NCBI GenBank assembly: GCA_965203805.1
Contig: OZ241917.1
Location: 3,264,001-3,328,000, forward strand
Source: Candidatus Latescibacterota bacterium
GTDB lineage: Bacteria; Latescibacterota; UBA2968; GCA-2709665
DNA length: 64,000 nucleotides
Direction of reading: 5' to 3'
The position numbers and the translations under genes were made by a program. Below the pieces are notes generated by a model that saw only the letters and a program-made list of their open reading frames with translations, made no database searches and was not told the DNA's origin. Below are positions 4,378 to 63,695 of this stretch, one piece after another. How positions within the stretch are numbered: the first letter of the stretch is position 1; each line of letters starts with the position of its first letter.

Positions 4378-4420
4378 CAAAAGAGGGGCGCTGCAACTCG
4401 CAGCGCCCCTCTTTTTATTT
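4378..4420. terminator. Intrinsic terminator
   Basis: AAAAGAGGGGCGCTGC-loop-GCAGCGCCCCTCTTTTT just after the stop codon. Confidence 0.85.
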
Positions 4421-4424
4421 GGGA

Positions 4425-5878
4425 ATCGGTGAGACGGGAGAAGGAAAAATGAAGAATTAAGAATGAAAACCTGAAGGCGGGGAGACGGTAGAGGAAACGA
4501 CCCGCTGGTTCCGGTTTGCCTATGGCATCCTGACAGGGCGCCTGTCGGCGGACAAACACCCGTTGGAACTGCGTTCCGGGCGATCCCAAACTTCACATCT
4601 CTAATTTACTTTTTTCTTCTTCGTCCTTTTTCTTATCCACGTGTACGGACCAAAAAGAAGCGTGCCTGCCTGCCGAGCAGGCTTCGGCGCAGGCAGGCCG
4701 CTCAAACGCCGCGGGGCTGCTTTTCCGCGAACCGCTTCCGTGGAGACACCGGGAGACGTTGCCCTGAAACCCTTACAGGCGTACCTGGACGACGTTGCTG
4801 GACGGACTCGCGCGGAAAAGCCCCATCCCCACCGCCATGCGCTTGAGTGAACTGCGCGAGGTTTGATGCATTTGTGATCTTGACGATTATGCGCTTGAGA
4901 ACCCCCGACACCCCCCCCCAACCTACCCCCTATCCCCCTTCCCGAAGGAAGGGGGAACGGCGATCCTATCAGGGAGTCCTGGTTGTCTCCCCCTCTCCCC
5001 CCGGGAGAGGGGGTTGGGGGGAGAGGTCTGCGGGGCTGGGAGTGGTTCGCTCCTGGCTGCTTCGTTTTTCTTCGTGTCTTCGTGCCTTTGTGTGAGCTGA
5101 CTTTGAATCTTGTTCTGACTATCGCTTCTGTTTCTGGCTGACTGCTGCTTTTCCCCCCTCCTCAGACCTACCCCCTAGCCCCCTTCCTGTGAGGAAGGGG
5201 GAACGGCGATGGGTCGATGGACCAGGCATGCAGACGTGCCGGCTGGCGAATTCCTGTCTATCAGTGTATCTATAGATGACCGGCACGCGATGACTGTCTT
5301 TTCTCCCCCTCTCCCCTTGGGAGAGGGGGCCTGCCTGCCGAGCAGAACTCGGCGCAGGCAGGCCGGGGGGAGAGGTCGCGTAAAAGCGGTGAGACGTAAG
5401 AGGTTAGACGGTAGATGAAGGCGGTGAGACGGTAGAGGTTAGACGGTAGATAATAACGTTACCACAGTGTTTTCACGCTAACCGTGCCTGTTTCTTTACC
5501 GATATGGTAACGACAAGAAAGACCATAGGGCACTGATATCATCTCCCGTCTTACGTCTCACGTCTCCCCGCCTTTCAGACCTACCCCCTAGCCCCCTTCC
5601 TGTGAGGAAGGGGGAACGGCGATGGGTCGATGGACTGGGCATGCAGACGTGCCGGGCTGGCGATTTCCTGTCAATCAGTGTATCTATAGATGACCGGCAC
5701 GCGATGCCTGTCTCTTCTCCCCCTCTCCCCCCGGGAGAGGGGGTTGGGGGGAGAGGTCTGCGGGGCTGGGGGTGGTTCGCTCCTGGCTGCTTTGTTTTTC
5801 TTCGTGTCTTCGTGCCTTTGTGTGAGCTGATTTTCGCTCTTGACTCAAGCTGATTGCTGATGGCTGATTGCTGTTTTT
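4425..5878 (+). repeat. Mosaic intergenic hairpin-module array 1
   Basis: Modules such as gtcctgacagg.., ttttccgcg..cgcggaaaa, ccccttcc..ggaagggg and cgtgccgg..ccggcacg are shared with 8 other loci. Confidence 0.9.
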
Positions 5879-5880
5879 CG

Positions 5881-6855
5881 CTATACATCCGCAATCGACA
5901 CGGGTTCGCCGGTTTCGAGAGACCGGTTCACCGCCACCACGACCTCCTGGGTCCTTACGGCATCCGAGTACGGACATCGCAGCTTCGATCCGTCGCCGGT
6001 ACGCACCGCTTCGATGAAGGCGTTGTCCATCTCCTGCCAGTAGGGGTTGCCGACCTCGATATGTTCCGACCGGTCGCCCTGTACAACGGTAATGGACTTT
6101 CTCTCGTTGTACTGGATCACCATATCCTTCGTGAAAATATCCAGCCCGCCGCGATGGCCGCACGACAGGAAACAGGCCGAAAAGAGCGTTGCCAGCGTGC
6201 CGTTTTCGAAAATCAACGTGGCCGCGCTCGCGTCTTCAATATCGTAGTCCTCCACGTCCGTCATCAACCCCGTACGGCCCCCGGCGAACACGGTTTTCAC
6301 CTCGCCGAAGAGATACCGGGCCATATCGGTCACGTGGACCGTCTGCTCGACGGCCTGCCCCCCGGACATCTGCTTCCGCCGCCACCAGGGGGTGCCCGGC
6401 AGCCCGCCCATCCAGTACCCGATGGCCAGCCCGACCGGACGGTCCGCAAGAAGGTCCCGCGTCCTGTCGATAATGTCCAGGTACCGGCCCTGGAAACCCA
6501 CGCAGGAGATCACGCCGTGCTCCCGGATGGCCGCGTCCGCCTCCCGCGCCGTATCCATGCCGAGCGAGATCGGCTTCTCGACAAAGAGCGCGATTCCCTT
6601 CTCCGCGGCCATAATCTCCTGCGTCTCGTGCGCAAATGGAGGGATGCAGATGTAGACCGCATCCAGTTCCACGTTGTTCAGCATGGACCGGTAATCCGTG
6701 AATACCTTCGCATCCCACTCCGCCGCGGCCTCGGCGGCCTTCGCCCGTTCCACGTCGCAAACGGCCACCACCGACACGTCGTCCATGACTTTCAAATGCC
6801 GGCGATGCGCGCGTGAGATGTTTCCCGCGCCGATGAACCCGACTTTCACCGTCAT
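5881..6855 (-). CDS. Gfo/Idh/MocA family oxidoreductase
   Basis: VGFIGAGNI Rossmann motif, EKP motif, SGG...H. Confidence 0.9.
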   Translation of the reverse strand: MTVKVGFIGAGNISRAHRRHLKVMDDVSVVAVCDVERAKAAEAAAEWDAKVFTDYRSMLNNVELDAVYICIPPFAHETQEIMAAEKGIALFVEKPISLGMDTAREADAAIREHGVISCVGFQGRYLDIIDRTRDLLADRPVGLAIGYWMGGLPGTPWWRRKQMSGGQAVEQTVHVTDMARYLFGEVKTVFAGGRTGLMTDVEDYDIEDASAATLIFENGTLATLFSACFLSCGHRGGLDIFTKDMVIQYNERKSITVVQGDRSEHIEVGNPYWQEMDNAFIEAVRTGDGSKLRCPYSDAVRTQEVVVAVNRSLETGEPVSIADV

Positions 6856-6906
6856 TTACATTTCCTTTACGGTATTCGATCCCAACCCGCCGGTTACGGC
6901 CGGTTT

Positions 6907-9681
6907 CTATTTCAACTCTTGCTTCAGCGCCCTGATCGTCTCTTCCAGCGCCTTCATCTCCTTGCCGGCCTGCTCCCAGTCCCACTGCTGCAGGGCCGAA
7001 CGCACACGGGAATAGTGCGCATCGGCTTTTGCCGCCAGTTCGGCAGCGGACTGCCCGGTCTGCACGGCCACGGAAGCCGCCGGCGCTTCCTCCTCACCGA
7101 TCGCAACGGTGGCGCCTGCTCCGGCCCCGAACAACTCCGACAGGGCCTCTTCGAACGTATTCCGCATCACCACCTGCCCGCCGAAAGCGACAATCACCTG
7201 CTTCAACTCCGGAATCGCCGTACTGCGTTCCTGCTCCCGCCTGGGCGGAGGCTGGCCGCCGGGCATGCCCTCTTCCTGTCCGTACGCCGGCTGTTCGGGC
7301 TCCTGCCTCGCCTGCAGATAGATGGGTTCGACGTAGATGAACGACCGCTCCACCGGGATGGCCAGCAGGTTTCCCCGGATCACCTCCGAGCCCCGCTGCC
7401 CCCACAACGTAAGCTGGCTGGAGATTTCCGGCTGCTGGTCCACCCGCGCTTCGATCTGCATCGGGCCGTAGATCAGCTTGTCTTTGGGCAGTTTGTACAC
7501 CAGGAGATGCCCGTAGTTTTCACCGTCGGACCGAGCCGCGAGCCAGGCGATCATATTGTCCCGCTTTTCAGGCGTGAACGGGACCATCAACAGGAATTCC
7601 TCCCGCTGCTCGCCGGGCAACTTGACGATGATGTAGTAGGGCAGCATCTTCTGCGGCTGGTCGCTGTAGATCTCGTTCGGAATCTCCCAGAGATCTTCCT
7701 GGTTGAAGAAGACGTTGACGTCTTCCATGTGATATGTCCGATACATGATCGCCTGCCTGAAAAACAGGTCGATGGGATACCGCACGTGCGCCCTGAGACC
7801 TTCCGGCATCTCGGACATCGGCTGGAACACGCCCGGGAACATCTCGCCGTAAGCTCGAATCAGCGGATCTTCCGTATCCACCTGATAGAACGTGACCGTG
7901 CCGTTATACGCGTCGACCACAACCTTCACGGAATTCCTGATATAGTTGATCCTCATCCGCCCGGAGCGGGTCGAATACGGGTACATGTCCGAGATCGTGT
8001 ACGCATCCTGAATCCAGTAAAGCCTGCCTTCGGACGCCACGACATAGGGATCGGTGTCGTACATGAGGAAGGGAACCAGCGTCTGAACCCGCTCCCGGAT
8101 CTGCCGGCGGAACATGATGCGGCTCTCAGGCAATATATAGCCGCTCAACAGAAGGCTCACGTCCCAGAACCGGATGGCAAACGACAGCCGATTGATAAAA
8201 CTGCCCGTGGGCACGCCGCCCAGCCCCTCATACGTCGAATACTGGTTCTCGTCGCCCTTCGGGTAGTCGAATTCCTCGATGCCCGTTTTCACGACCACGT
8301 AGGCGTAGGTTCTCTCGCCGTAATAGATCTCGGGCCTCTCGACCTCCAGCCCGGAAACCGAAACGGGCGGTATGTCCTTGACCATAAACGCCGGCAGGCC
8401 CTCCGGCGTCACGTGGTTCACCGGGCTTATGGTCACCCCGTATCCGTGGGTATACTGCAGGCGCTCGTTGACCCAGTTCCTCGCCTGGGACGGCAACCGG
8501 TTGGTATCCAGTTCCCGGGCGGACAACATCACCTGTCTGTAGACCCCGTCTATGGTGTACCGGTCCACGTCCACGCTCGGAAATACGTAATAAGGCCGGA
8601 TCTCCTGAACCTGCTGATAGGTCTGTTTCAGGGGGCGTTCATCCCAGATCCGGATGTTTCGCATCGTCAGGGGGTTGGCCTGAATGTCCGCCAGCGTCAG
8701 GTCTTCAGACGCCTCGAAGGGCTGCTCGACGATCCGGTCCAGCCCGTATGCCCGGTTCGTCGCCTCGATATTGTATTCGATGAAGGGGCCTTCCCGGCGG
8801 AGTTCGCTTGGCTCCACCACCAGCTTCTGCACCAGGGTCGCGGGGACCGCTCCCACGACGATGGTGCCGATAACGAGCACACCGACGCCCCTGAGCGGCA
8901 ACCGGGTATTGGGCTTCCTGACGTTCAGAAACAGGAAAACCGCCGTCGCCAGAAAGACGAACACCATCACCCAGTAGGCCCAGATCTGAACGTTGACATC
9001 CACGTAACCGGCGCCGAAGAACCGCCCCTGCGAATAGAGCAGGCCGTAGATCTTCAGCCGGTACTTCCACGCCAGCGCCAGAAGGAATACGCCGCCCAGC
9101 CCGGAAAGATGGGCCATGGGACGTTCCCCCACCTCGAGCCCTTCCCGGATACCAATGCCCCCTGCCGCGACGTACATCACCACCACGATCAGCGCCGACA
9201 GCACCAGCGCCGCGATCAGAAACCCGGAAAGGAAATCGTAGAACGGCAGCAGGAACACATAGAAGCCCACCTCCCGTCCGAAAATGGGATCCACGGCGCC
9301 GAAGGGCTGTTCGTAGAGGTACCTCAGCAGGACCGGCCACTGGCTGGCGCCGATGTTGCCAAGGATGAAAACCAGTACGGCTGCGATGAACACATGGGTT
9401 TTCCTGGACTGCAATACGCCGGCGGGTTCGTCGTCAACCCGCACCGCCCGCTGTGTCATGCGCCCCGCAATCCACAGGTTCACCCCCACCACAATCGCCG
9501 CGATTGCGCCGAAGACCATGCCCGATCCGAAGCGGGCGCGAATGATACGCCAGAACACCGAATCGTACTCCAGGCTCCTGAACCACAGCCAGTCGGTATA
9601 GTACGACACCAGGAAACTGATTCCGAAGAACCCGCCAACCAGCACGGCAAGAACGATCCATCCCCGCGGACGCCGATCCAT
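6907..9681 (-). CDS. UPF0182 family membrane protein
   Basis: YYTDWLWF, DPIFGREVGFY, NIRIWD, DVDRY, YTHGYG, INYIRNSVK motifs. Confidence 0.92.
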   Translation of the reverse strand: MDRRPRGWIVLAVLVGGFFGISFLVSYYTDWLWFRSLEYDSVFWRIIRARFGSGMVFGAIAAIVVGVNLWIAGRMTQRAVRVDDEPAGVLQSRKTHVFIAAVLVFILGNIGASQWPVLLRYLYEQPFGAVDPIFGREVGFYVFLLPFYDFLSGFLIAALVLSALIVVVMYVAAGGIGIREGLEVGERPMAHLSGLGGVFLLALAWKYRLKIYGLLYSQGRFFGAGYVDVNVQIWAYWVMVFVFLATAVFLFLNVRKPNTRLPLRGVGVLVIGTIVVGAVPATLVQKLVVEPSELRREGPFIEYNIEATNRAYGLDRIVEQPFEASEDLTLADIQANPLTMRNIRIWDERPLKQTYQQVQEIRPYYVFPSVDVDRYTIDGVYRQVMLSARELDTNRLPSQARNWVNERLQYTHGYGVTISPVNHVTPEGLPAFMVKDIPPVSVSGLEVERPEIYYGERTYAYVVVKTGIEEFDYPKGDENQYSTYEGLGGVPTGSFINRLSFAIRFWDVSLLLSGYILPESRIMFRRQIRERVQTLVPFLMYDTDPYVVASEGRLYWIQDAYTISDMYPYSTRSGRMRINYIRNSVKVVVDAYNGTVTFYQVDTEDPLIRAYGEMFPGVFQPMSEMPEGLRAHVRYPIDLFFRQAIMYRTYHMEDVNVFFNQEDLWEIPNEIYSDQPQKMLPYYIIVKLPGEQREEFLLMVPFTPEKRDNMIAWLAARSDGENYGHLLVYKLPKDKLIYGPMQIEARVDQQPEISSQLTLWGQRGSEVIRGNLLAIPVERSFIYVEPIYLQARQEPEQPAYGQEEGMPGGQPPPRREQERSTAIPELKQVIVAFGGQVVMRNTFEEALSELFGAGAGATVAIGEEEAPAASVAVQTGQSAAELAAKADAHYSRVRSALQQWDWEQAGKEMKALEETIRALKQELK

Positions 9682-9884
9682 ATTTTCTCCTTTTTCAAGA
9701 CCACGACGAAACGATGAATTCGACCACAAGAAAACAAAAAAACCGCTTTCTGTCAGCAAAAACATTTCGGCGGGCCGGCGCGGACATGGCGCCGCGCCTA
9801 ATCGTTGACATCCGGCGGCGCCTTTGTCTTATTATCCGTAACGCACATTTGCTTCGGCGGCCCGACCCGAATCAGGAGAAAACC

Positions 9885-10673
9885 ATGTCGGAATTTCAGG
9901 ATAAAGCGGTCATCGTCACCGGCGGCGCGAAGGGCATCGGCAGCGGCATCTGCCTGGCATTCGCCAGAGAGGGCGCCCGCGTGCTCTGCGCCGACGTGGA
10001 CGCGAACGCCGGCGATCGTCTGGCCGCGGAAAGCGACGCCCTCCCGGGCCATATCCAGTTCCAGGAGGCGGACGTCGCGCGTGACGACGCGTGCCGCGGG
10101 CTCGCGCGGACCTGCGTTTCGGAATGGGGCAGCGTGGATATCCTCTGCAACAACGTGGGCATCCAGCCGACACACAGCTACCTGCCTGCCCACGAACTGC
10201 CCGAAGACACGTGGGACGCCATCCTGAACGTCAACCTGAAGAGCGCCTTTCTGATGACGCGTCACTGCGTCCCCGAGATGATTAAACGCGGGGGCGGCGT
10301 GATTATCAACACGGCCAGCGTCCAGGGTCTCCAGTCCACCAAAGGCGTCTGCGCCTACGCCGCCAGCAAGGGCGGCATCCTTTCGCTGACGCGGCAACTC
10401 GCCCTGGAATACGCCGAACACAACGTGCGGGTGCTTGCGGTCAACCCCGGCACGATCGACACCCCTCTGGTCGACGAAGCCCTGAAGGCCACGGGCGGCG
10501 ACGAGAAGGAACAGCGCGAACGGATGGGCCGGTCCCATCCCATCGGCCGGATCGGGACCCCCGACGAGGTCGCGCAGGCCGTGCTGTTCCTCGCCAGCGA
10601 AAAAGCCTCGTTCATGACGGGCGAGAACGTGTGCGTGGACGGCGGCATGATGGCCAAAGGCGCCTGGAGCTGA
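9885..10673 (+). CDS. SDR family oxidoreductase
   Basis: TGGAKGIG, NNVG, YAASK, PGTIDT. Confidence 0.92.
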   Translation: MSEFQDKAVIVTGGAKGIGSGICLAFAREGARVLCADVDANAGDRLAAESDALPGHIQFQEADVARDDACRGLARTCVSEWGSVDILCNNVGIQPTHSYLPAHELPEDTWDAILNVNLKSAFLMTRHCVPEMIKRGGGVIINTASVQGLQSTKGVCAYAASKGGILSLTRQLALEYAEHNVRVLAVNPGTIDTPLVDEALKATGGDEKEQRERMGRSHPIGRIGTPDEVAQAVLFLASEKASFMTGENVCVDGGMMAKGAWS

Positions 10674-10702
10674 TCACCCGTCCAGGGCCGCAACAGAACC
10701 CT

Positions 10703-11182
10703 ATGGACTATCATCCGTTTATCGTCCACTTCCCCGTCGCCCTGCTCACCGTCGGATTCTTCTGCGACGCCGCCGGCATTTTTCTCCGCAGGGACCACCT
10801 CCTCCGCACCGGCTACCTCCTCCTGGTTCTGGGCGCGGTCTCCGCGATCGCGGCCGCGGTCACGGGAGACGCGGCCGAGGATTCGGCCGCCGGAATCCCC
10901 GGCATCGCCGCCGCGCTCGAGCAGCACGCGTCCATCTCCACCGCAGCCACATGGCTGGCCATCGGGCTTGCCCTCTTCCGCACCCACCTCACCGTCAAGG
11001 GAAAATTCTCCGGAAACCTCCGATTCGTATATCTCGCCGGCGCGGCGGCAACGGCGGTTCTCGTTGCCGTCAGCGGGTACACCGGAGGGCGAATGAGTTA
11101 CGAATACGGGCCGGGTGTCAGGCCTGTGATGGAAATTCACTCCCCCCGCAATCCGGCTCCGGGAGAGAAGACCCCCGATTGA
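10703..11182 (+). CDS. DUF2231-type membrane protein
   Basis: HPFIVHFPVAL N-terminus, four hydrophobic segments, GYTGGRMSY. Confidence 0.7.
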   Translation: MDYHPFIVHFPVALLTVGFFCDAAGIFLRRDHLLRTGYLLLVLGAVSAIAAAVTGDAAEDSAAGIPGIAAALEQHASISTAATWLAIGLALFRTHLTVKGKFSGNLRFVYLAGAAATAVLVAVSGYTGGRMSYEYGPGVRPVMEIHSPRNPAPGEKTPD

Positions 11183-11269
11183 CTCCGCGAGTGGTACAGA
11201 AATGCTGCGATGTTCCTGCCTCGGATTTCCCATGGTTGCTTTATAGTTCGCCTGACGGCGGAAGAACAC

Positions 11270-12530
11270 CCTTTGAAACTAACCTCCGGCAGGACAAGGG
11301 CTTAACCTCTCCCACAAACTCTATTTTCTCTTCGTCCTTTTTCTTGTACGCCCAAGAAAAAGGACCAAAAAGAACGGCGCCTGCCTGCCGAGCAGGCTTC
11401 GGCGCAGGCAGGCCGCTCGGCGCGGGGCCGGTTTTTCCGTGAACCACCTCAGTGGCGGAATTGGAATTTAGGTGCCCTGTCACCGGACCAGCCCATCCCG
11501 AACGATGTTGCTGGACGGATTTGCACGGAAAAACCCCCCACTCCACCACCGTACGCCTATTAGGACCACATGATGTTTGGAACGAAAATATCGCTAGCGA
11601 TTGTGCGTTTAAAAACCCCCCTCACCACCGCCGACCTACCCCCTATCCCCCTTCCCGGAGGGAAAGGGGGAACGGTGATCCTTTCAGGGTGTCCTGGTTG
11701 TCTCCCCCTCTCCTCACAGGAGAGGGGGCCGGGGGGAGAGGTCGCGTAACAGCGGGGAGACGTAAGAGGTGAGACGTTAGATGACGTCCTTGCCTGATTG
11801 GATCTTACTTTATGCCTGCGGCAAGAAATGAAACCGTACAGGGCACACAATATCTCCCGTCTTACGTCTCCCGTCTCCCCGCCCTTAGGGAATTTGGGGA
11901 GCTATGGATGTTGAATCTGATATTCGCTCTTGCTTCAAGCTGACTGCCGAATGCTGACCGCTGTTTGGTTTTCTTTGTGTCTTTGTGTCTCCGTGTGATA
12001 GGAATTTCGGTTTCGACTAAGCTCCGACGCCTGTCTTTTCTCCCCCTCTCCCCCCGGGAGAGGGGCCGGGGGGAGAGGTCGCGTAAAAGCGGTGAGACGT
12101 AAGAGGTGAGACGTTAGATGACGTCCTTGCCTGATTGGATCTTACTTTATGCCTGCGGCAAGAAATGAAACCGTACAGGGCACACAATATCTCCCGTCTT
12201 ACGTCTCCCGTCTCCCCGCTCTTCAGGCACTCACGGTATCTCCCGTCTAACGTCTCCCGTCTTACCGCCCCTCAGACCTACCCCCTTTCAGGGTGTCCTG
12301 GTTGTCTCCCCCTCTCCCCCCGGGAGAGGGGGCCGGGGGGAGAGGTCTGCGGGGCTGGGGGTGGTTCGCTCTCGGCTGAATGCTGACAGCTGTTTCTCAA
12401 CGGCAGGGAATTTGGGGAGATGTGGATGTTGAAGTTGATTCTTGTTTTTGATTCTCGCTCTTGCTTCAAGCTGACTGCCGAATGCTGACCGCTGTTGGCT
12501 GGTTGGGCGGCCGGGGGGAGAGGTCTCGTT
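11270..12530 (+). repeat. Mosaic array 2
   Basis: Same modules; internal ~160-bp direct duplication (~11722-11882 and ~12059-12218). Confidence 0.9.
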
Positions 12531-12663
12531 TCGTTCTTGATCGGAGGGGCGTTGTACGCTACCTTTCCAGCGAATGACGCGAGCGCGTCTACGCCGTTAC
12601 GGGCGCCGTTTTCGCCGCGGCCCGGACACTTTCACATCGGGTTGTTCGGAAGGGACCGACAGC

Positions 12664-24427: not shown

Positions 24428-25572
24428 ATCGCATCCTCCTGACTATCCGATCCTCGGGGAAATTGCGCGAGGGCGCGCTGATTCGATGTACTTTTTCATA
24501 ACGCCTGTCGGCCGGTAATGGTTGCAGGGAACTGAAGAGAAGGAAGAAGGAAAAAGGAAGAAGGAAGAAGGAAGAAGGAAAACCGGTTGTGGTCCTCGTT
24601 CGTATTATCCATCATGTCCTGACAGGCCGCCTGCCGGCGGACAGACACCCGTTGGAACTAACCTCCTGGGGGACATTGACTTTACTCCTCCAACCAACTT
24701 TCATTTTCTCTTCGTCCTTTTTCTTGTACGCCCAAGAAAAAGGACCAAAAAGAACGGCGCCTGCCTGCCGAGCAGGCTTCGGCGCAGGCAGGCCGCTCGG
24801 CGCGGGGCCGGTTTTTCCGTGAACCACCTCAGTGGCGCAATTGGAATTTGGGTGCCCTGTCACCGAAACAGCCCTGCCGGAACTATGTTGCTGGACGGAT
24901 TTGCACGGAAAAACCCCCCTCTCCACAACCGTCCGCTTGATAGGAACTTACAAAGCACCGTACGGCGATGTTCCTGCGCGCTGGAGCGTTTACAGACCCA
25001 CCAACCTACCCCCTATCCCCCTTCCCGGGGGGAGGGGGAAACTGTGATCCCCTCGTGGTGTCCTGGTTTGCTCCCCCTCTCCCCCCGGGAGAGGGGGCCG
25101 GGGGGAGAGGTCTGAGGGGTTGGGGGTGAGGGCGCTCTTGATTCTGGCTGACGGCTGAGAGCCGACCGCTGATTGCTGCTCTAAGGAAGGGAGAAAGCGG
25201 GATCCTATCGCGTGGCGTTCGTTACCCTTTCCTTATAGGAGAGGGTCCCTGTCTGGCGGTGGTTTTTCGGCAGGCAGGGGGGAGAGGTCTGCGTAAATTC
25301 GGGGAGACGTAAGAGGGTAGACGGTAGATGAAGACATTTACCGCAGTGTTTCTACATAAACCGTGCCTGTTTTTTTACCGATATGGTAACGACTGGAAAA
25401 ACCATGGGGCACTGATATCATCTCCCGTCTCACGTCTACCCGCCTCCGCCGACCTACCCCCTATCGCGTGGCGTTCGTTACCCTTTCCTTATGGGGCTTA
25501 TATACTTAACTTGATATTTGTTTTAGGTTGTTCTACCAATCAACCCGTCAACATCACAGAGGAGAAGTTGAT

Positions 25573-34731: not shown

Positions 34732-34774
34732 TGCGGGTCCTCAGCTATTCAAACAATGGACAGGATGTAAACCA

Positions 34775-34975
34775 AAAGCGCGAGAAGACGAGAGAACGAG
34801 AGAACGAGAAAGGCGCGAGAGAACGAGAAATGCACGAGAGAACGAGAAAGGCGCGAGAGAACGAGAAATGCACGAGAGAACGAGAAGACGAAAAAGCGCG
34901 AGAAGACGAGAGAACGAGAAGACGAAAAAGCGCGAGAAGACGAGAGAACGAGAAAAGCGCGAGAAGACGAAGAGG
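34775..34975 (+). repeat. Purine-rich degenerate tandem repeat (GCGAGAAGACGAGAGAAC..)
   Basis: ~200 bp of reiterated CGAGA(G/A)A units. Confidence 0.85.
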
Positions 34976-38401: not shown

Positions 38402-38419
38402 GAACCCTGCTCAGTTTCA

Positions 38420-39635
38420 GGGAAAGGGAAGAAGGAGAAAGAATTAAGAATGAAGAATGAAAACGGGATGGTCCTCGTGGGGATTATCTATCGCGTCCTG
38501 ACAGGCCGCCTGCCGGCGGACAAACACCCGTTGGAACTGCGTTCCGGGCGGTCCCAAACTTCAATTTTCTTTTTTCCTTCATGCCCTTTTTCTTGCTTCG
38601 CCCAAGAAAAAGGGCCAAAAAGAAGGGCGCCGCTCAAACGCCGCGGGGCTGCTTTTCCGCGAACCGCTTCAGTGGAGACAACGGGAGTCGTTGCCCTGAA
38701 ACCCTTACAGGCGTTCCCGGACGACGTTGCTGAACGGACTCGCGCGGAAAAGCCCCTTCACCACCACCGTTCGCTTGAGTGAACTGCGCGAGGTCTGATG
38801 CATTTGCGGTCTTGACGATTATGCGCTTCAGACCCCCACCCCCGCCAACCTACCCCCTAACCCCCTTCCTGTGAGGAAGGGGGAACGGCGATGGGTCGAT
38901 GGACTGGGCATGCAAACGTGCCGGCTGGCGAATTCCTGTCTATCAGTGTATCTATAGATGACCGGCACGCGATGCCTGTCCTTTCTCCCCCTCTCCCCCC
39001 GGGAGAGGGGGTTGGGGGGAGAGGTCTGCGTAAATTCGGTGAGACGTAAGAGGGTAGACGGTAGATGAAAACGTTACCACAGTGTTTTCACGCTAACCGT
39101 GCCTGTTTCTTTACCGACTATGGTAACGACGAGAAAGACCATAGGGCATTCATCTCACGTCTACCCTTTTCGAGACCCATTCCCTGACCCCCTTCCTGCG
39201 AGGAAGGGGGAAAGCGGGATCCTATCGCGTAGCGTTCGTTACCCTTTCCTTATAGGAGAGGGTCCCTGCCTGCCGGTGATTTTTCGGCAGGCAGGGGGAT
39301 AGGTCTGCGCATCCGCGAGGTCATGTCGCCAGGCCTTATCGTCGCCCCGTTGAAGCAGGTTGTCATCCCTCATCTCACGTCTCACGTCTTGCGTCTCCCC
39401 GCCAACCTACTGCCTACCCCCTTCCTATAAGGAAGGGGGACCCCCGGATCCTATCGCGTAGCGTTCGTTTCCCTTTCCTTATAGGAAAGGGTCCTGCCTG
39501 CCGGTGATTTTTCGGCAGGCAGGGGGATAGGTCTGCGCATCCGCGAGGTCATGTCGCCAGGCCTTATCGTCGCCCCGTTGAAGCAGGTTGTCATCCCTCA
39601 TCTCCCGTCTCACGTCTAACGTCTCCCCGCTCTTC
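38420..39635 (+). repeat. Mosaic array 4, between arc and dop
   Basis: Same modules; internal duplication ~39218-39400 / ~39447-39630. Confidence 0.9.
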
Positions 39636-39636
39636 G

Positions 39637-41374: not shown

Positions 41375-42385
41375 GGAGAATTAAGAATTGAGAATGAAGA
41401 ATGAAAACGGGATGGTCCTCGTGCGGTCTATCCATCGTGTCCTGACGGGGCGCCTGGCGGCGGACAGATTCCCGTTGGAACTGCGTTCCGGGCGGTCCCA
41501 AACTTCAAACTTCAATTTTCTTTTTTCCTTCATGCCCTTTTTCTTGCTTCGCCCAAGAAAAAGGGCCAAAAAGAAGGGCGCCTGCCTGCCGAGCAGGCTT
41601 CGGCGCAGGCAGGCCGCTCAAACGCCGCGGGGCTGCTTTTCCGCGAACCGCTTCAGTGGAGACAACGGGAGACGTTGCCCTGAAACCCTTACAGGCGTTC
41701 CCGGACGACGTTGCTGGACGGACTCGCGCGGAAAAGCCCCACCCCATCCTCCGTGCGTTCGATAGAACCTCGCGAAGTTACCTGCGATGAACTTCTTGCG
41801 CGATGCAACGCTTGCAATCTCCCACACCACCGCCAACCTACTGTCTACCCCCTTCCCGAAGGAAGGGGCCCCCCCGGATCCTATCGCGTGGCGTTCGTTA
41901 CCCTCTCCTCACAGGAGAGGGTCCCTGCCTGGCGGTGGTTTTTCGGCAGGCAGGGGGGAGAGGTCTGCGCATCCGCGAGGTCATGTCGCCAGGCCTTATC
42001 GTCGCCCCGTCGAAGCAGGTTGTCATCCCTCCTCTGCCGTCCTACATCTCACCTCTCCCCGCCTTTGAGACCTACCCCCTAACCCCCTTCCTGTGAGGAA
42101 GGGGGAACGGTGACGGGTCGATGTCCTGGGCATGCAAATGTGCCGGGTGGCGAATTCCTGTCAATCAGTGTATCTATTGATGACCGGCCCGCGACACCTG
42201 TCTTTTCTCCCCCTCTCCTCACAGGAGAGGGGGCCTGCCTGCCGAGCAGGTCTCGGCGCAGGCAGGCCGGGGGGAGAGGTCTGCGGGGCCGGGAGGGGTT
42301 CGCATTCGGCTGACTTTTGATTGTGATGTTCGCTCTTGATTCAAGCTGACGGCTGATCGCTGATAGCTGCTCTTTGCTGCCTTTC
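41375..42385 (+). repeat. Mosaic array 5
   Basis: Same modules in the same orientation. Confidence 0.9.
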
Positions 42386-43283: not shown

Positions 43284-43466
43284 CGCTCCCTCCTGACAAT
43301 CTAATTCGCCGTGATTCCGGACAGGCGCTATTTCGCATAAGTATAGCCCGGTGTTTTTGGAATGTCAACCCGGACAGTGATTGAATTCTGATGAAAAGCT
43401 GATTAGAACCTGTGGAGAGACTTTGGAGGATGAGATTGGCGCGAGGGGATCGCCGGGAGAGACCGT

Positions 43467-43652
43467 GATCAGAGGACGATCAAGGACCCGGGAAGAGGCC
43501 ACGATCAGAGGACGATCAAGAGTCCGGGAAGAGGCCACGATCAGAGGACGATCAAGAGTCCGGGAAGAGGCCACGATCAGAGGACGATCAAGGGCCCGGG
43601 AAGAGGCCGTGATCAGAGGAGGATCAAGGGCCCGGGAAGAGGACACGGTCAG
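43467..43652 (+). repeat. 36-bp tandem repeat, about 5 copies
   Basis: GATCAGAGGACGATCAAGAGTCCGGGAAGAGGCCAC head-to-tail, no spacers. Confidence 0.9.
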
Positions 43653-43763
43653 AAAAAAAGCACCGGAAAATTGGCCACGAATAGTACAAAAAGGCACAAA
43701 GGGTGTCGCTGTAAAACGGACCGAAGAGGTCGTCCGGAAGCACATTTGTTACATTCACGTCCG

Positions 43764-51069: not shown

Positions 51070-52478
51070 AGTCAATTAAGAATTAAGAATGAAGAATGAA
51101 GAATTAAAACCTGAAGGCGGGGAGATGGGAAAGGGAGGGGGAGGAGGAAGGAAGAAGGAAAACCTGTCCCGTCTCACGTCTACCCCGCCGCCGACCTACC
51201 CCCTATCGCGTGGCGTTCGTTACCCTTTCCTTATAGGAGAGGGTCCCTGCCTGGCGGTGGTTTTTCGGCAGGCAGGGGGGAGAGGTCACGCATCAGGGAG
51301 GAGGTCTCGCCCGGCCATATCGTCGTCCCGTGGCCGCGAGTGATCATCTCCCGTCTTACGTCTTGCGTCTCCCCGCCTTTCAGACCTACCCCCTAACCCC
51401 CTTCCTGTGAGGAAGGGGGAACGGTGACGGGTCGATGGACCGGGCATGCAAACGTGCCGGCTGGCGAATTCCTGTCTATCAGTGTATCTATAAATGACCG
51501 GCACGCGAAGTCTGTCTCTTCTCCCCCTCTCCCCGCCTCCGCCGACCTACCCCCTATCGCGTGGCGTTCGTTACCCTTTCCTTATAGGAGAGGGTCCCTG
51601 CCTGGCGGTGGTTTTTCGGCAGGCAGGGGGGAGAGGTCTGCGCATCAGGGAGGAGGTCTCGCCCGGCCATATCGTCGTCCCGTGGCCGCGAGTGATCATC
51701 TCCCGTCTTACGTCTTGCGTCTCCCCGCCTTTCAGACCTACCCCCTATCCCCCTTCCTGTGAGGAAGGGGGAACGGTGACGGGTCGATGGACCGGGCATG
51801 CAGACGTGCCGGCTGGCGAATTCCTGTCTATCAGTGTATCTATAAATGACCGGCACGCGAAGTCTGTCTCTTCTCCCCCTCTCCCCGCCTCCGCCGACCT
51901 ACCCCCTAGCCCCCTTCCTGTGAGGAAGGGGGAACGGTGATGGGTCGATGGACCGGGCATGCAAACGTGCCGGCTGGCCAATTCCTTTCTATCAGAGTAT
52001 CTATAGATCACCGGCACGCGAAGTCTGTCTTTTCTCCCCCTCTCCCCGCCTCCGCCGACCTACCCCCTATCGCGTGGCGTTCGTTACCCTCTCCTCACAG
52101 GAGAGGGTCCCTGCCTAGCGGTGGTTTTTCGGCAGGCAGGGGGGAGAGGTCGCGCATCAGGGAGGAGGTCTCGCCCGGCCATATCGTCGTCCCGTTGACG
52201 CAGGTTGTCATCTCCCGTCTTACGTCTTGCGTCTCCCCGCTCTTCAGGCACTCACGGTATCTCACGTCTCACGTCTTGCGTCTCCCCGCCTTTCAGACCT
52301 ACCCCCTATCGCGTGGCGTTCGTTACCCTCTCCTCACAGGAGAGGGTCCCTGCCTGGCGGTGGTTTTTCGGCAGGCAGGGGGGAGAGGTCTGCGGGGAGG
52401 GGGGTTGGGTGGAGAGGGGTTGGGGGTGAGGGCGATTCTGCTTCAAGCTGATTGCTGAAAGCCGACAGCTGATCGCTG
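51070..52478 (+). repeat. Mosaic array 6
   Basis: Same modules; ~351-bp tandem unit starting at 51191 and 51542. Confidence 0.9.
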
Positions 52479-53287: not shown

Positions 53288-53943
53288 CTACAGATCGAAG
53301 AGTTCACGAAACCACTGTATGAATGACTGAGTTGCGGGCAAATTCGCGTCTAACGCCTTGCTCTCAATCGCTCTGCCAGGGTTCCGGACGGGCGGGTCTT
53401 GCCAACTGAGCCATGTATACAGCTTTGCCTTATTCGTATGGGCATTGCGATAGGGCGCGTCCCAATCTTTTTTTGCCGTTTCAGTGCAGCCTTCCGCGTA
53501 GTTCCACAGGGGTTGATCGGGTACAAGATCCCGCAAAAAAGTTTCCAGATCGCCTTTGGACCGATTGTCTGGCATAATCCAGATGCCAAGACGCCTCTGT
53601 GACCGGTTGCTTACGATCAAGCCGTCCGGTGGCAACGCAGTCGGCATTTCCGGGAAGGATGCGTTAGTTTTAGATTATACAGGCTCTGGTAACGGCGTCC
53701 GGCGCCCTGGTCGTCCGCATCGATCATAATTCCAAGAGTCCTGATCGTGGACGATTTCAAGAGCACACCCATGTAATCCTTATTCAGAATCTCATTTACA
53801 CTCTTACCTATGTCGATGTATACGGGGTACTCGGACTCATTGGCGCCAGGCCATTCAATCTGGGTGCGCATTATCTCACGGACAGTATACAAGTCATCAT
53901 AACCCTCGACAACGAGACGCTTAGGGTTGTCTCCGGCCATCAA
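53288..53943 (-). pseudogene. DUF3226 (TOPRIM-like) gene split by a 1-bp frameshift
   Basis: N-half LVVEGYDD..GIMIDAD and C-half GIWIMPDN..GDLETFL in different frames; the join is at a T4 run at 53668-53671. Confidence 0.7.
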
Positions 53944-57739: not shown

Positions 57740-58713
57740 ATCGGGGAGACGAGAGACGGGAAAAGGAAGAATGAAGAATGAAAACCGGTTGGTCCTCCTG
57801 CCGTTTCTCCATCGTGTCCTGACAGGGCGCCTGGCGGCGGACAGACACCCGTTGGAACGACGTTCCGGGCGGTCCCAAACTTCAATCTTCAATTTTCTTT
57901 TTTCCTTCATGCCCTTTTTCTTGCTTCGCCCAAGAAAAAGGGCCAAAAAGAAGGGCGCCTGCCTGCCTGCCAAAGCGTCACTGGCAGGCGCAGGCAGACC
58001 GCTCAAACGCCGCGGGGCTGCTTTTCCGCGAACCGCCTTCGTGGAGGGAACATGCGCCGCTGACCTGAAACCCTTGCAGGCGTTCCCGGACGACGTTGCC
58101 GGACGGACTCGCGCGGAAAAGCCCCTTCTCCACCACCGCCGACCTACCCCCTATCCCCCTTCCTGCCTGGAAGGGGGAACGGTGACGGGTCGATGGACCG
58201 GGCATGCAAACGTGCCGGCTGGCGAATTCCTGTCTATCAGTGTATCTATAGATGACCGGCACGCGATGCCTGACTTTTCTCCCCCTCTCCCCGCCTCTTC
58301 GGGACCTATCCCCCTTCCCGGGGGGAAGGGGGACCCCCGGATCCTATCGCGTGGCGTTCGTTTCCCTTTCCTTATAGGAAAGGGTCCTGTCTGCCGTGAT
58401 TCTTCGGCAGGCAGGGGGATAGGTCTGCGCATCCGCGAGGTCATGTCGCCAGGCCTTATCGTCGCCCCGTTGAAGCAGGTTGTCATCCCCCATCTCACGT
58501 CCTACGTCTACCCGCTACCCACTTCTTCGAGACCTACCCCCTAACCCCCTTCCTGCCTGGAAGGGGGAACGGTGACGGGTCGATGGACCGGGCATGCAAA
58601 CGTGCCGGCTGGCGAATTCCTGTCTATCAGAGTATCTATAGATCACCGGCACGCGATGCCTGTCTTTTCACCCCCTCTCCCCCCGGGAGAGGGGGCCGGG
58701 GGGAGAGGTCTGC
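57740..58713 (+). repeat. Mosaic array 7
   Basis: Same modules in the same orientation. Confidence 0.9.
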
Positions 58714-60824: not shown

Positions 60825-62013
60825 AAAAGCGGTGAGACGGGAAAGGGAGGAAGGAGGAAGGAACAAGGAAAAATGAAGAAGGAAGAAGGAAAACCGGTTG
60901 GTCCTCCTGCCGTTTCTCCATCGTGTCCTGACAGGGCGCCTGGCGGCGGACAGACACCCGTTGGAACGACGTTCCGGGCGGTCCCAAACTTCAATCTTCA
61001 ATTTTCTTTTTTCCTTCATGCCCTTTTTCTTGCTTCGCCCAAGAAAAAGGGCCAAAAAGAAGGGCGCCTGCCTGCCTGCCAAAGCGTCACTGGCAGGCGC
61101 AGGCAGGCCGCTCAAACGCCGCGGGGCTGCTTTTCCGCGAACCGCTTCAGTCGAGAATACGGGAGACGTTGCCCTGAAACCCTTGCAGGCATTCCCGGAC
61201 GACGTTGCTGGACGGACTCGCGCGGAAAAGCCCCTTCCCCACCACCGGACGCTTGATAGGAACTTACAAGGAACCGTACGGCGATGTTCCTGCGCGCTGG
61301 AGCGTTTACAGATCCCCCGCTCCCCACCGCCGACCACCCCCTAACCCCCTTCCTGCCAAGAAGGGGGAACGGTGACGGGTCGATGGACCGGGCATGCAAA
61401 CGTGCCGGCTGGCGAATTCCTGTCTATCAGTGTATCTATAAATGACCGGCACGCGAAGTCTGTCTTTTCTCCCCTCTCCTCCCCGCCAACCTACCCCCTA
61501 TCCCCCTTCCTGTGAGGAAGGGGGAACGGTGATCCTATCAGGGAGTCCTGTTTGTCTCCCCCTCTCCCCCCGGGAGAGGGGGTTGGGGGGAGAGGTCTGC
61601 GGGGCTGGGGGTGGTATGCAACTGGCGTTCGTTGCCCTTTCCTTATAGGAAAGGGTCCCTGCCTGGCGGTGGTTTTTCGGCAGGCAGGGGGGATAGGTCT
61701 GCGCATCCGCGAGGTCATTTCGCCAGGCCTTATCGTCGCCCCGTTGAAGCAGGTTGTCATCTCCCGTCTCACGTCTCCCCGCTTCTGAGGGGGCCGGGGG
61801 GAGAGGTCGCGTAAAAGCGGTGAGAGGGGAGAGGGGACAATTAAAAATTAAGAATGAAAACCTGAAGGCGGTGAGAGGGTAGACGTTAGACGGTAGATGA
61901 AGGCGGTGAGACGGGAAAGGGAGGAAGGAACACGGAAGAAGGAAGAATGAAAACCGGTTGGTCCGCGTGCGTCTTATCCATAGCGTCCTGACAGGTCGCC
62001 TGCCGTCGGACAC
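60825..62013 (+). repeat. Mosaic array 8
   Basis: Same modules; ends in a truncated module next to the Uma2 stop codon. Confidence 0.9.
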
Positions 62014-62769: not shown

Positions 62770-63695
62770 GCCGAAGAAGGAAGAGGAAGAAGGGGTGGTC
62801 CTCGTGCGGTTTATCCATTGTGTCCTGACAGGACGCCTGCCGGCGGACATACACCCCTTGGAACCGCGTTCCGGCCGGTCCCAAACTTTACTTCTTCAAT
62901 CTTCAATTTTTCTTCCTGCCCTTTTTCTTGCTTCGCCCAAGAAAAAGGGCCAAAAAGAAGGGCGCCTGCCTGCCTGCCAAAGCGTCACTGGCAGGCGCAG
63001 GCAGGCCGCTCAAACGCCGCGGGGCTGCTTTTCCGCGAACCGTTTCGGTGGCGAATACGGAAGTCGTTGCCCTGAAACCCTTGCAGGCGTTCCCGGACCA
63101 CGTTGCTGGACGGACTCGCGCGGAAAAGCCTCTTCCCCACCGCCGGACGCGTGATAGGAACTTACAAGAAACCGTACGGCGATGTTCCTGCGCGCTGGAG
63201 CGTTTACAGACCCGCCTCTCCTCACCGCCGAGACCTACCCCCTAGCCCCCTTCCTGTGAGGAAGGGGGACCCCCGGATCCCGTCGCGTGGCGTTCGTTAC
63301 CCTTTCCTTATAGGAAAGGGTCCCTGCCTGGCGGTGGTTTTTCGCCAGGCAGGGGGGATAGGTCTGCGCATCCGCGAGGTCATGTCGCCAGGCCTTATCG
63401 TCGCCCCGTTGAAGCAGGTTGTCATCTCCCGTCTTACGTCTCCCGTCTCCCGGCCTTTCAGACCTACCCCCTTCCTATAAGGAAGAAGGAAAGCAGGATC
63501 CTATCGCGCGGCGTTCGTTTCCCTTTCCTTATAGGAAAGGGTCCCTGCCTGGCGGTGGTTTTTCGGCAGGCAGGGGGGAGAGGTCTGCGCATCCGCGAGG
63601 TCATGTCGCCAAGCCTTATCGTCGCCCCGTTGACGCAGGTTGTCATCTCCCGTCTCACGTCTAACGTCTCACCAGGGGAGGGGGGTTGGGAGGAA
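62770..63695 (+). repeat. Mosaic array 9
   Basis: Same modules in the same orientation. Confidence 0.9.

Follow-up and report, generated by a model that had tools for sequence, protein, structure and literature searches.

In a 64-kb stretch of the genome of an uncultured Candidatus Latescibacterota bacterium (G000:C1:3264001-3328000, in the following "the window"; the genome, G000, is a single contig of 5.87 Mb with 59% G+C), the intergenic arrays are built from hairpin modules in whose stems the pairing is conserved rather than the sequence. [quoted passage not shown] The core unit, B-H-C, has ~200 nt and consists of the B hairpin, whose 5' arm is T-rich and whose 3' arm is A-rich, an A-tract, the GC hairpin H, and module C, which comprises 101-105 nt with a 10-11-bp stem around an interior of ~82 nt. 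Base pairs in the stems of B and C are strictly of the Watson-Crick kind, the unit is ancient and shared throughout an order of sponge- and coral-associated Latescibacterota, and modules are nested in one another and have been gained and lost at the same intergenic site among congeners. The hairpin repeat family occupies roughly one fifth of the window, where ~10 intergenic regions of 1-1.5 kb each are composed of 37 direct-repeat families in varying order. In array 1, the 20-nt pieces are each present 4-61 times genome-wide, as judged from copy depth per 20 nt.

A regular-expression search with all four combinations of arms retrieved 25 copies of module C from the whole genome. Eleven have the stem GCTTTTCCGCG/CGCGGAAAAGC (type 1), 14 have GTTTTTCCGTG/CACGGAAAAAC (type 2), and none has mixed arms. 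Thus, the two compensated arm variants of the original prediction are confirmed, as are the three copies that it had placed at 4719-4821, 11431-11534, and 24811-24914. Searches of the same genome with nhmmer and with a covariance model built from 32 copies found 35 and 49 copies, respectively. Wider searches also revealed a third stem type, TGCAYAGCGCG/CGCGCTCTGCT, which is wholly different in sequence and encloses the same interior blocks, and a copy with the arms GTTTTTGCGTG/CACGCAAAAAC, which contains one further compensated pair. In 32 copies from this genome, RNAalifold retained nine stem pairs, of which six are changed on both sides and none is broken. Across 113 distinct copies from 28 genomes (alignment A3, with 114 matches from 100 sources; L037, L107, L009, L013, L028, and L033 were left out), the 11-pair stem is 96.1% paired and both sides have changed at 10 of the 11 pairs. 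The covariation score and the percentage of pairing of the whole tested structure, which included a second and weaker helix besides the 11-pair stem, exceeded those of 500 out of 500 shuffles and of every slid register. Cells other than Watson-Crick pairs are rare among the ~1240 cells of the stem, whose counts are inflated by the shared ancestry of the copies: seven are G·T or T·G and 18 are A·C or C·A, 13 of the latter in a single pair of columns whose register is off in the g6 form.

Compensation is also found in the other hairpins. The predicted arm variants of module B hold, with 23 perfect loci in the genome in three haplotypes (GTCC.. at 11, GCCC.. at 10, and ..CTTA at two) and an uncompensated arm in no true copy. 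The same applies to both named variants of module F, which account for 46 (CCCCCTCTCCC) and six (CCCCCTCTCCT) perfect loci, and five more F loci contain one T·G. Because these palindromes are detected on both strands, the detections (22, 20, and 4 for B; 92 and 12 for F) were halved to obtain loci. Module E is present in 19 copies in the window and at 67 perfect loci (134 detections on both strands). Of the 86 copies of C for which 120 nt or more of flanking sequence was available, 67 are preceded, mostly 32-37 nt upstream, by a perfect hairpin of 8 bp or longer whose 5' arm is T-rich, and these hairpins have 30 different arm sequences; only perfect hairpins were sought, so that their perfection is given by construction but their position and diversity are not.

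Within this genome, types 1, 2, and 3 all keep the order B, A-tract, H, and C, and so do the distant genomes of g6, although none of their stems has the same sequence. Likewise, the position and pairing of H are conserved in the t1, t2, t3, and g6 forms according to the alignments. A small GC hairpin between B and H, hp1, is optional: it is present in 17 and absent in seven of 25 aligned units, and some hp1 loops hold another hairpin. Seven pairs in this genome consist of a type-1 or type-2 unit that faces an inverted type-3 unit ~190 nt away. The clustering between genes, the mixture of palindromic and non-palindromic motifs, their varying order, and the optional or nested modules agree with a BIME-like mosaic; the BIME concept also includes binding by IHF or gyrase. 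In front of two type-2 copies of C (G000 2517795 and 3346764) stands the GCCC form of B, otherwise the partner of type 1. B and C types have thus been reshuffled, presumably through recombination between units. A coding role for module A or the A-B-C segment was rejected, because none of the six open frames through it matches Pfam, the start codon is not conserved, and the length of C differs by 1-2 nt between types.

Copies within this genome (11 of type 1 and 15 of type 2) show a pairwise column identity of 0.9-1.0 in the stems, in H, and in three conserved blocks of the C interior (GAAY-CNCCTCAGNGG, TGSCCTG..ACC, and GYTGGACGGA), whereas the two variable segments and the flanking sequence past C show values of 0.2-0.6. 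The interior motifs AACC and GTTGCTGGACGGA that had been pointed out earlier are real, and TGCCCTG and ACC are conserved likewise. Since stems and blocks are alike while the variable parts have drifted, the copies must be old, and each has retained the same parts; they are constrained and not decayed. This constraint on each copy could arise from use by the host, from a continued need for mobility, or from patchy gene conversion.

The covariance model matches 31 of 61 genomes if the host genome is counted, typically with 10-65 copies each. Matches were obtained in all 14 genomes of the genus, in 18 of 21 in its own family, in 12 of 31 in a second family, and in none of the eight from two other families of the class. 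Within the own family, genera g4 and g5 gave no match. When 185,579 species genomes (one per prokaryote species) were scanned with a pattern, at least 109 stretches matched. Among the 80 matches listed, most are titled Candidatus Latescibacterota and six stem from three metagenome-assembled genomes (MAGs) titled Gemmatimonadota; the few scattered other matches among those listed are about as many as expected by chance. The nearest named relatives of the Pup ligase in the window are from MAGs labelled Candidatus Latescibacteria or Latescibacterota (~70% identity), and the DNA sequencing runs that contain the stretch mostly have sponge labels, besides coral and marine metagenomes. A consistent neighbour gene was considered and rejected, as unrelated genes (hisG, fic, hsdR-like, kinase, groEL, aminotransferase, and argJ) flank the six copies inspected in the second family, which come from six genomes of g6 and g11.

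The pairing might also not be selected at all. Founder palindromes might have been amplified recently, or the arms homogenized by hairpin-templated repair or gene conversion. Shared arm haplotypes are indeed common, with two of them found in 26 and 24 of the 113 copies, the cell counts carry the inflation by shared ancestry noted above, and the missing G·U intermediates would fit a templated copying of arms. However, the 28 genomes contain 34 haplotypes, whose differences are compensated at 10 of 11 stem positions, the stems are intact in copies old enough for their variable parts to have diverged, and the hairpin upstream of C with its 30 arm sequences behaves in the same way. An origin of the pairs without selection is the explanation to which we give the least credence.

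Alternatively, the units might be a multi-copy structured non-coding RNA (ncRNA), either a small RNA (sRNA) or a cis-acting mRNA element, with B-H-C or C alone as the molecule and the loop blocks binding a protein or pairing with a target. The strong covariation in the stems, the order-wide conservation, and the constraint on each copy would all suit such an RNA. The interior of C, however, does not behave like one. RNAalifold found no consensus helix there, neither with all copies nor per subfamily, and the folds of the subfamilies disagree. In averaged pair probabilities no interior pair reaches 0.25 on either strand, and mutual information and register scans of the interior gave nothing consistent. 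The folding energy of the interior equals that of dinucleotide shuffles (mean z -0.33 on the forward and -0.19 on the reverse strand), and the same holds for its halves and variable segments. A candidate helix between the conserved blocks CB1 and CB3 is 78.0% paired, mostly through G·U, but this is barely above the shuffles (76.5%), of which seven in 500 equal it. Pairing of CCGUC with GACGG was seen in the g3 form and fails in most others. A search against Rfam, which had been proposed as a check, returned no family for the 64-kb window, and when E-values as high as 10 were admitted for 4400-5900 and 11180-12580, the matches were mere hairpin noise with scores far short of the gathering thresholds. 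Resemblances to 5S rRNA and to T-loops noticed by eye have no support in Rfam, and a reading of CB3 as a sigma-54-like site was dropped because the spacing from GG to GC, determined by eye, is 8 and not 10. Covariation supports the closing stem alone, whereas in a generic structured ncRNA it should extend over most of the molecule, and the stems are almost devoid of G·U.

Context and orientation give further hints. Crude gene calls (GC3 > GC1 > GC2, minimum 200 aa) place the units in 40 intergenic regions, of which 24 are unidirectional, eight convergent, and eight divergent, compared to 2145, 389, and 389 in the background. Among 26 scored units of types 1, 2, and 4, 12 are opposite to both neighbours, seven are co-oriented with both, and seven are mixed. 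An orientation unrelated to the neighbouring genes makes a cis-acting role in mRNA unlikely. Sites resembling sigma-70 promoters are no more frequent than expected (one in 8.4 kb vs 2.0), and a pattern scan detected terminator-like sites formed by hp1 with a T-run on the minus strand and by H with the T-run of the C arm on the plus strand. The cumulative GC skew has its minimum at ~4.42 Mb and its maximum at ~0.8 Mb. All 49 matches to the model lie at 2.22-5.69 Mb around the minimum, and none was found in the other 2.4 Mb around the maximum. For units of types 1, 2, and 4, the forward strand coincides with the C-rich strand of the replichore in 22 cases out of 27 (binomial p 0.0015, with clustered copies).

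The few G·T cells, an interior that is unfolded on both strands, the orientation independent of genes, and the replichore bias are pointers to DNA over RNA. In the mechanism we propose, the stems would function as hairpins while the nucleic acid is single-stranded, and a protein may recognize the surface formed by the conserved loop blocks. Single-stranded DNA (ssDNA), exposed at the replication fork or during mobilization, is judged a likelier form of this nucleic acid than free-standing folded RNA. The original prediction had treated the A-B-C unit as a structured ncRNA or ssDNA recognition element rather than decayed junk. This prediction is borne out in part by the compensation in the B, C, and F stems, which goes far beyond shuffles, by the order-wide B-H-C unit, and by the constraint on its parts, the last being the strongest argument against junk. 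The ssDNA alternative fits better than the structured ncRNA, for which the missing interior helix, the energies equal to shuffles, and the lack of an Rfam match speak poorly.

Turnover of the modules is evident from comparisons among congeners. The spacer between pafA and arc in ten of them measures 205, 212, 288, 332, 342, 699, 795, 933, 1232, and 1235 nt, with differing sets of modules; in the window, a 1.2-kb array at 38402-39636 splits the Pup-proteasome operon at this place. The H-C-D block is absent from the spacer of G001, with ambiguous junctions. A separate inverted-repeat element of the type at 5383-5575, with the end motifs GAGACG(G)TA(A/G)GA(G)G, recurs at 11749-11880 and 12086-12200; in four congeners, the spacer between pafA and arc contains nothing else, and in G013 this element is located inside a B hairpin. 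The only IS110-family gene of the host genome (456 aa; L108 361-1975, G000:C1 ~4837526-4839140) interrupts the 3' arm of B. The two halves of B flank this insertion sequence (IS), and hp1-H-C of type 2 follows. IS110-family elements are known to insert into palindromic repeats. Since the gene interrupts B and the other 48 model matches are far off, B-H-C is a target and not the RNA of the IS itself; consistently, B-H-C does not qualify as an IS110 bridge or seek RNA, a structured RNA that the non-coding end of an IS110/IS1111 element encodes beside its recombinase.

Module C might also be a classical 104-bp MITE, with the 11-bp arms as terminal inverted repeats that a DDE transposase reads as double-stranded DNA, so that the fit of both arms to one enzyme, rather than pairing between them, makes them co-vary. 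It is short, non-coding, and bounded by inverted repeats of suitable length, and its interior is unfolded. Moreover, the whole ~500-bp unit in G022 has ~14-bp inverted ends upon reading, and module D at 11535-11625 is bounded by an 8-nt direct repeat, CACCACCG, and missing by eye at the homologous place after the 58020 copy. On the other hand, an autonomous IS with the same ends, or any cognate transposase, was not found for the at least four arm types of this one genome and the 34 haplotypes overall. Variation at 10 of 11 arm positions with conserved interior blocks is the reverse of what sequence-specific recognition of ends would leave, and the fixed spacing of C to B and H means that the arms are not obviously the ends of a mobile unit. 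We thus consider a classical MITE distinctly unlikely.

Known repeat families share parts of this picture. REPs are described as 20-40 bp long, tagged with GTAG or CGTC, and located mainly between unidirectional or convergent genes (Di Nocera et al., 2013, PMC3733652). As in the REP/BIME arrays of enterobacteria and the tagged REP families covered there, intergenic palindromes and short motifs form mosaics of several families with inverted pairs, and are targets of ISs. In contrast to those elements, B-H-C measures ~200 nt and contains a large unfolded loop with conserved blocks, and its gene contexts include as many divergent as convergent regions. For REPINs, Bertels and Rainey (2011, PMC3116915) report that compensatory changes in the stem are common and predict that hairpins form in ssDNA or mRNA. 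Mobile REPINs thus have compensated stems too, so that such stems alone do not indicate an ncRNA. The REPIN-RAYT system described there also resembles B-H-C in being non-coding, with conserved inverted ends, a less conserved spacer, long vertical persistence, and clusters. It differs in that the entire REPIN forms one long hairpin and is accompanied by a single-copy gene for a REP-associated tyrosine transposase (RAYT) flanked by the same repeat, whereas the C interior is unfolded, Y1 genes are missing from half of the congeners that carry the element, and B-H-C is not a 20-40-nt tagged palindrome flanking a RAYT gene.

ERIC, BOX, and Correia-type repeats are small, non-coding, and intergenic with inverted ends, BOX is built of modules A, B, and C, and such elements can be nested. 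Together with MITEs, they are like B-H-C in their small size, dispersal, inverted ends, modular build, and nesting. Unlike MITEs, B-H-C has no parent IS that could be found, its stems vary while the interior blocks are conserved, and it is order-wide and constrained in each copy. IS200/IS605 elements recognize DNA hairpins rather than sequence, and their insertion orientation is tied to the direction of replication. The strand bias in the replichore would recall this behaviour, but neither a matching Y1 transposase nor one flanked by units was found. Integron attC sites are imperfect inverted repeats of ~60-140 nt with a variable centre, are recognized as folded ssDNA, and have a conserved structure instead of a conserved sequence. 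The arms of C do not fit the RYYYAAC and GTTRRRY core sites, however, and the neighbouring genes are not co-oriented cassettes. Four traits set the family apart from these systems: an order-wide age, the constraint that acts on each copy, a sequence-free stem that bears a large loop with invariant motifs but no fold, and the lack of a recognizable partner enzyme in our searches. The literature on repeats in Latescibacteria yielded no description of the family, and that on intergenic repeats of sponge symbionts gave only general MITE and REP papers.

Several observations weigh against hairpin repeats of the DNA strand, and part of them would favour an RNA. Assembled Logan contigs from three metatranscriptome libraries of two studies cover the modules, including contigs of 129 and 141 nt that span C with 11 differences each; these contigs come without strand or ends, DNA carry-over is possible, and the depth over the modules mirrors their copy number, with an equal excess over the arrays in a DNA run. 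As far as can be read from the sequence, H with the A-tract would be an intrinsic terminator on the reverse strand, suiting an sRNA transcribed from that strand. The long-range helix between CB1 and CB3, if real, points to an RNA of the forward strand. The replichore bias stems from clustered, non-independent copies and is confounded with the strand bias of genes. On balance, the poor folding of the interior, the random orientation, and the few promoter-like sites make a structured ncRNA unlikely, although less so than a classical MITE.

The same side of the scale holds the search for a mobilizing enzyme. In this genome, no IS ends in the arms of C, and 32 solo matches to the arms look like chance by eye, mostly in unique and seemingly coding sequence. 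TnpB was not found. Y1 transposase genes are present in seven of the 14 congeners as compared to 14 of 14 for the element. A RAYT-like Y1 transposase gene of this genome (201 aa with an HVHVL motif; L026 280-2520, G000:C1 ~4532600-4534830) has on both sides a GTAG-tagged REP, GTAGGGCAGGGATGCCCTC, which is a repeat different from B-H-C; an hp1-type hairpin follows its stop codon. Neither RAYT nor TnpB could be linked to the element as a mobilizer, and the comparison of the pafA-arc spacers of the ten congeners gave no clean pair of an empty and a filled B-H-C site and established no target duplication for it. Finally, conservation of each copy is more typical of elements used by the host, or of RNA genes, than of decaying MITEs. 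Taken further, B-H-C may be no selfish repeat but a host-retained element of Latescibacterota, hundreds of millions of years old, in which an invariant protein-binding loop (GAAY / TGSCCTG / GACGGA) sits on a sequence-free stem and two freely varying segments serve as a copy-specific address or guide. We rate this very unlikely. If true, it would mean a new class of RNA- or ssDNA-guided or chromosome-organizing systems tied to the direction of replication.

The features of the window that underlie this analysis are compiled in Table 1. Genes for a Pup ligase, proteasome subunits, and an ARC ATPase are among its coding content. Module blocks of 161-352 nt are tandemly duplicated at 39187-39630, 51188-52069, and 63241-63670 with 90-98% matches, so that arrays also grow through local duplication. 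Two further tandem arrays, at 43453-43653 and 34774-34965, have no relation to the hairpin modules; one repeats a 36-nt unit 5.6 times with 90% matches, the other a purine-rich unit of 19/38 nt. DUF3226 is split across two overlapping frames at 53288-53943 on the minus strand (profile residues 90-208 vs 1-79), which may reflect a frameshift; the frames adjoin a gene for an AAA_15/AAA_21 ATPase.

Table 1. Array modules and related repeats in the window (positions count from its first nucleotide; "." means no strand assigned)
Feature	Position	Strand	Description or basis
Array 1, module mosaic	4425..5880	+	bounded by the 3' ends of two genes (Na:alanine symporter; GFO/IDH/MocA)
Module A, t1 form	4500..4612	+	hairpins CGCC-TGTC-GGCG and GGAAC-TGC-GTTCC; repeat families D7, D13
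Module B, degenerate	4621..4652	+	GTCCTTTTTCTTA..GGAC
hp1, optional small GC hairpin	4663..4697	+	GCCTGCCTGCC..GGCAGGCAGGC
Hairpin H with upstream A-tract	4698..4718	+	GCCGC..GCGGGGC; alignments
Module C, type 1	4719..4821	+	regular expression, alignment, covariance model
Module D, insertion-like	4822..4905	+	between C and E; comparison with other copies
Module E hairpin	4934..4955	+	CCCCCTTCC-CGAA-GGAAGGGGG; conserved ACCTACCCCC upstream; family D5
Module F hairpin	4989..5013	+	CCCCCTCTCCC-CCC-GGGAGAGGGGG; pattern search
MITE-like element, ~30-nt inverted ends	5383..5575	.	GGTGAGACGTAAGAGGTTAGACGGTAGAT .. ATCTCCCGTCTTACGTCTCAC; family D17
Module B, intact	11334..11365	+	GTCCTTTTTCTTG-TACGCC-CAAGAAAAAGGAC
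hp1 hairpin	11379..11413	+	alignment, terminator scan
Hairpin H	11413..11430	+	terminator-like on the + strand with the T-run of the C 5' arm
Module C, type 2	11431..11534	+	GTTTTTCCGTG/CACGGAAAAAC; regular expression, alignment
Module F, variant	11704..11728	+	CCCCCTCTCCT-CAC-AGGAGAGGGGG; inner pair C-G to T-A
Module C, type 2	24811..24914	+	regular expression, alignment
Module C, type 1	38651..38753	+	within the pafA-arc spacer of the Pup-proteasome operon
Module C, type 1	41635..41737	+	regular expression, alignment
Module C, type 1	58020..58122	+	E directly after, without D
Module C, type 1	61129..61231	+	regular expression, alignment
Module C, type 1	63027..63129	+	regular expression, alignment

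To our knowledge, work on interspersed repeats of bacteria has been confined almost entirely to Proteobacteria, Firmicutes, and Cyanobacteria. That each copy of the family in Latescibacterota retains its stems and the three loop motifs means that something still reads these elements. They caution against identifying an ncRNA from compensated stems alone, and offer a testable case in which selection on DNA hairpins can be separated from selection on RNA hairpins. Furthermore, the family is a candidate protein-binding site and a marker for the genome dynamics of the symbionts.

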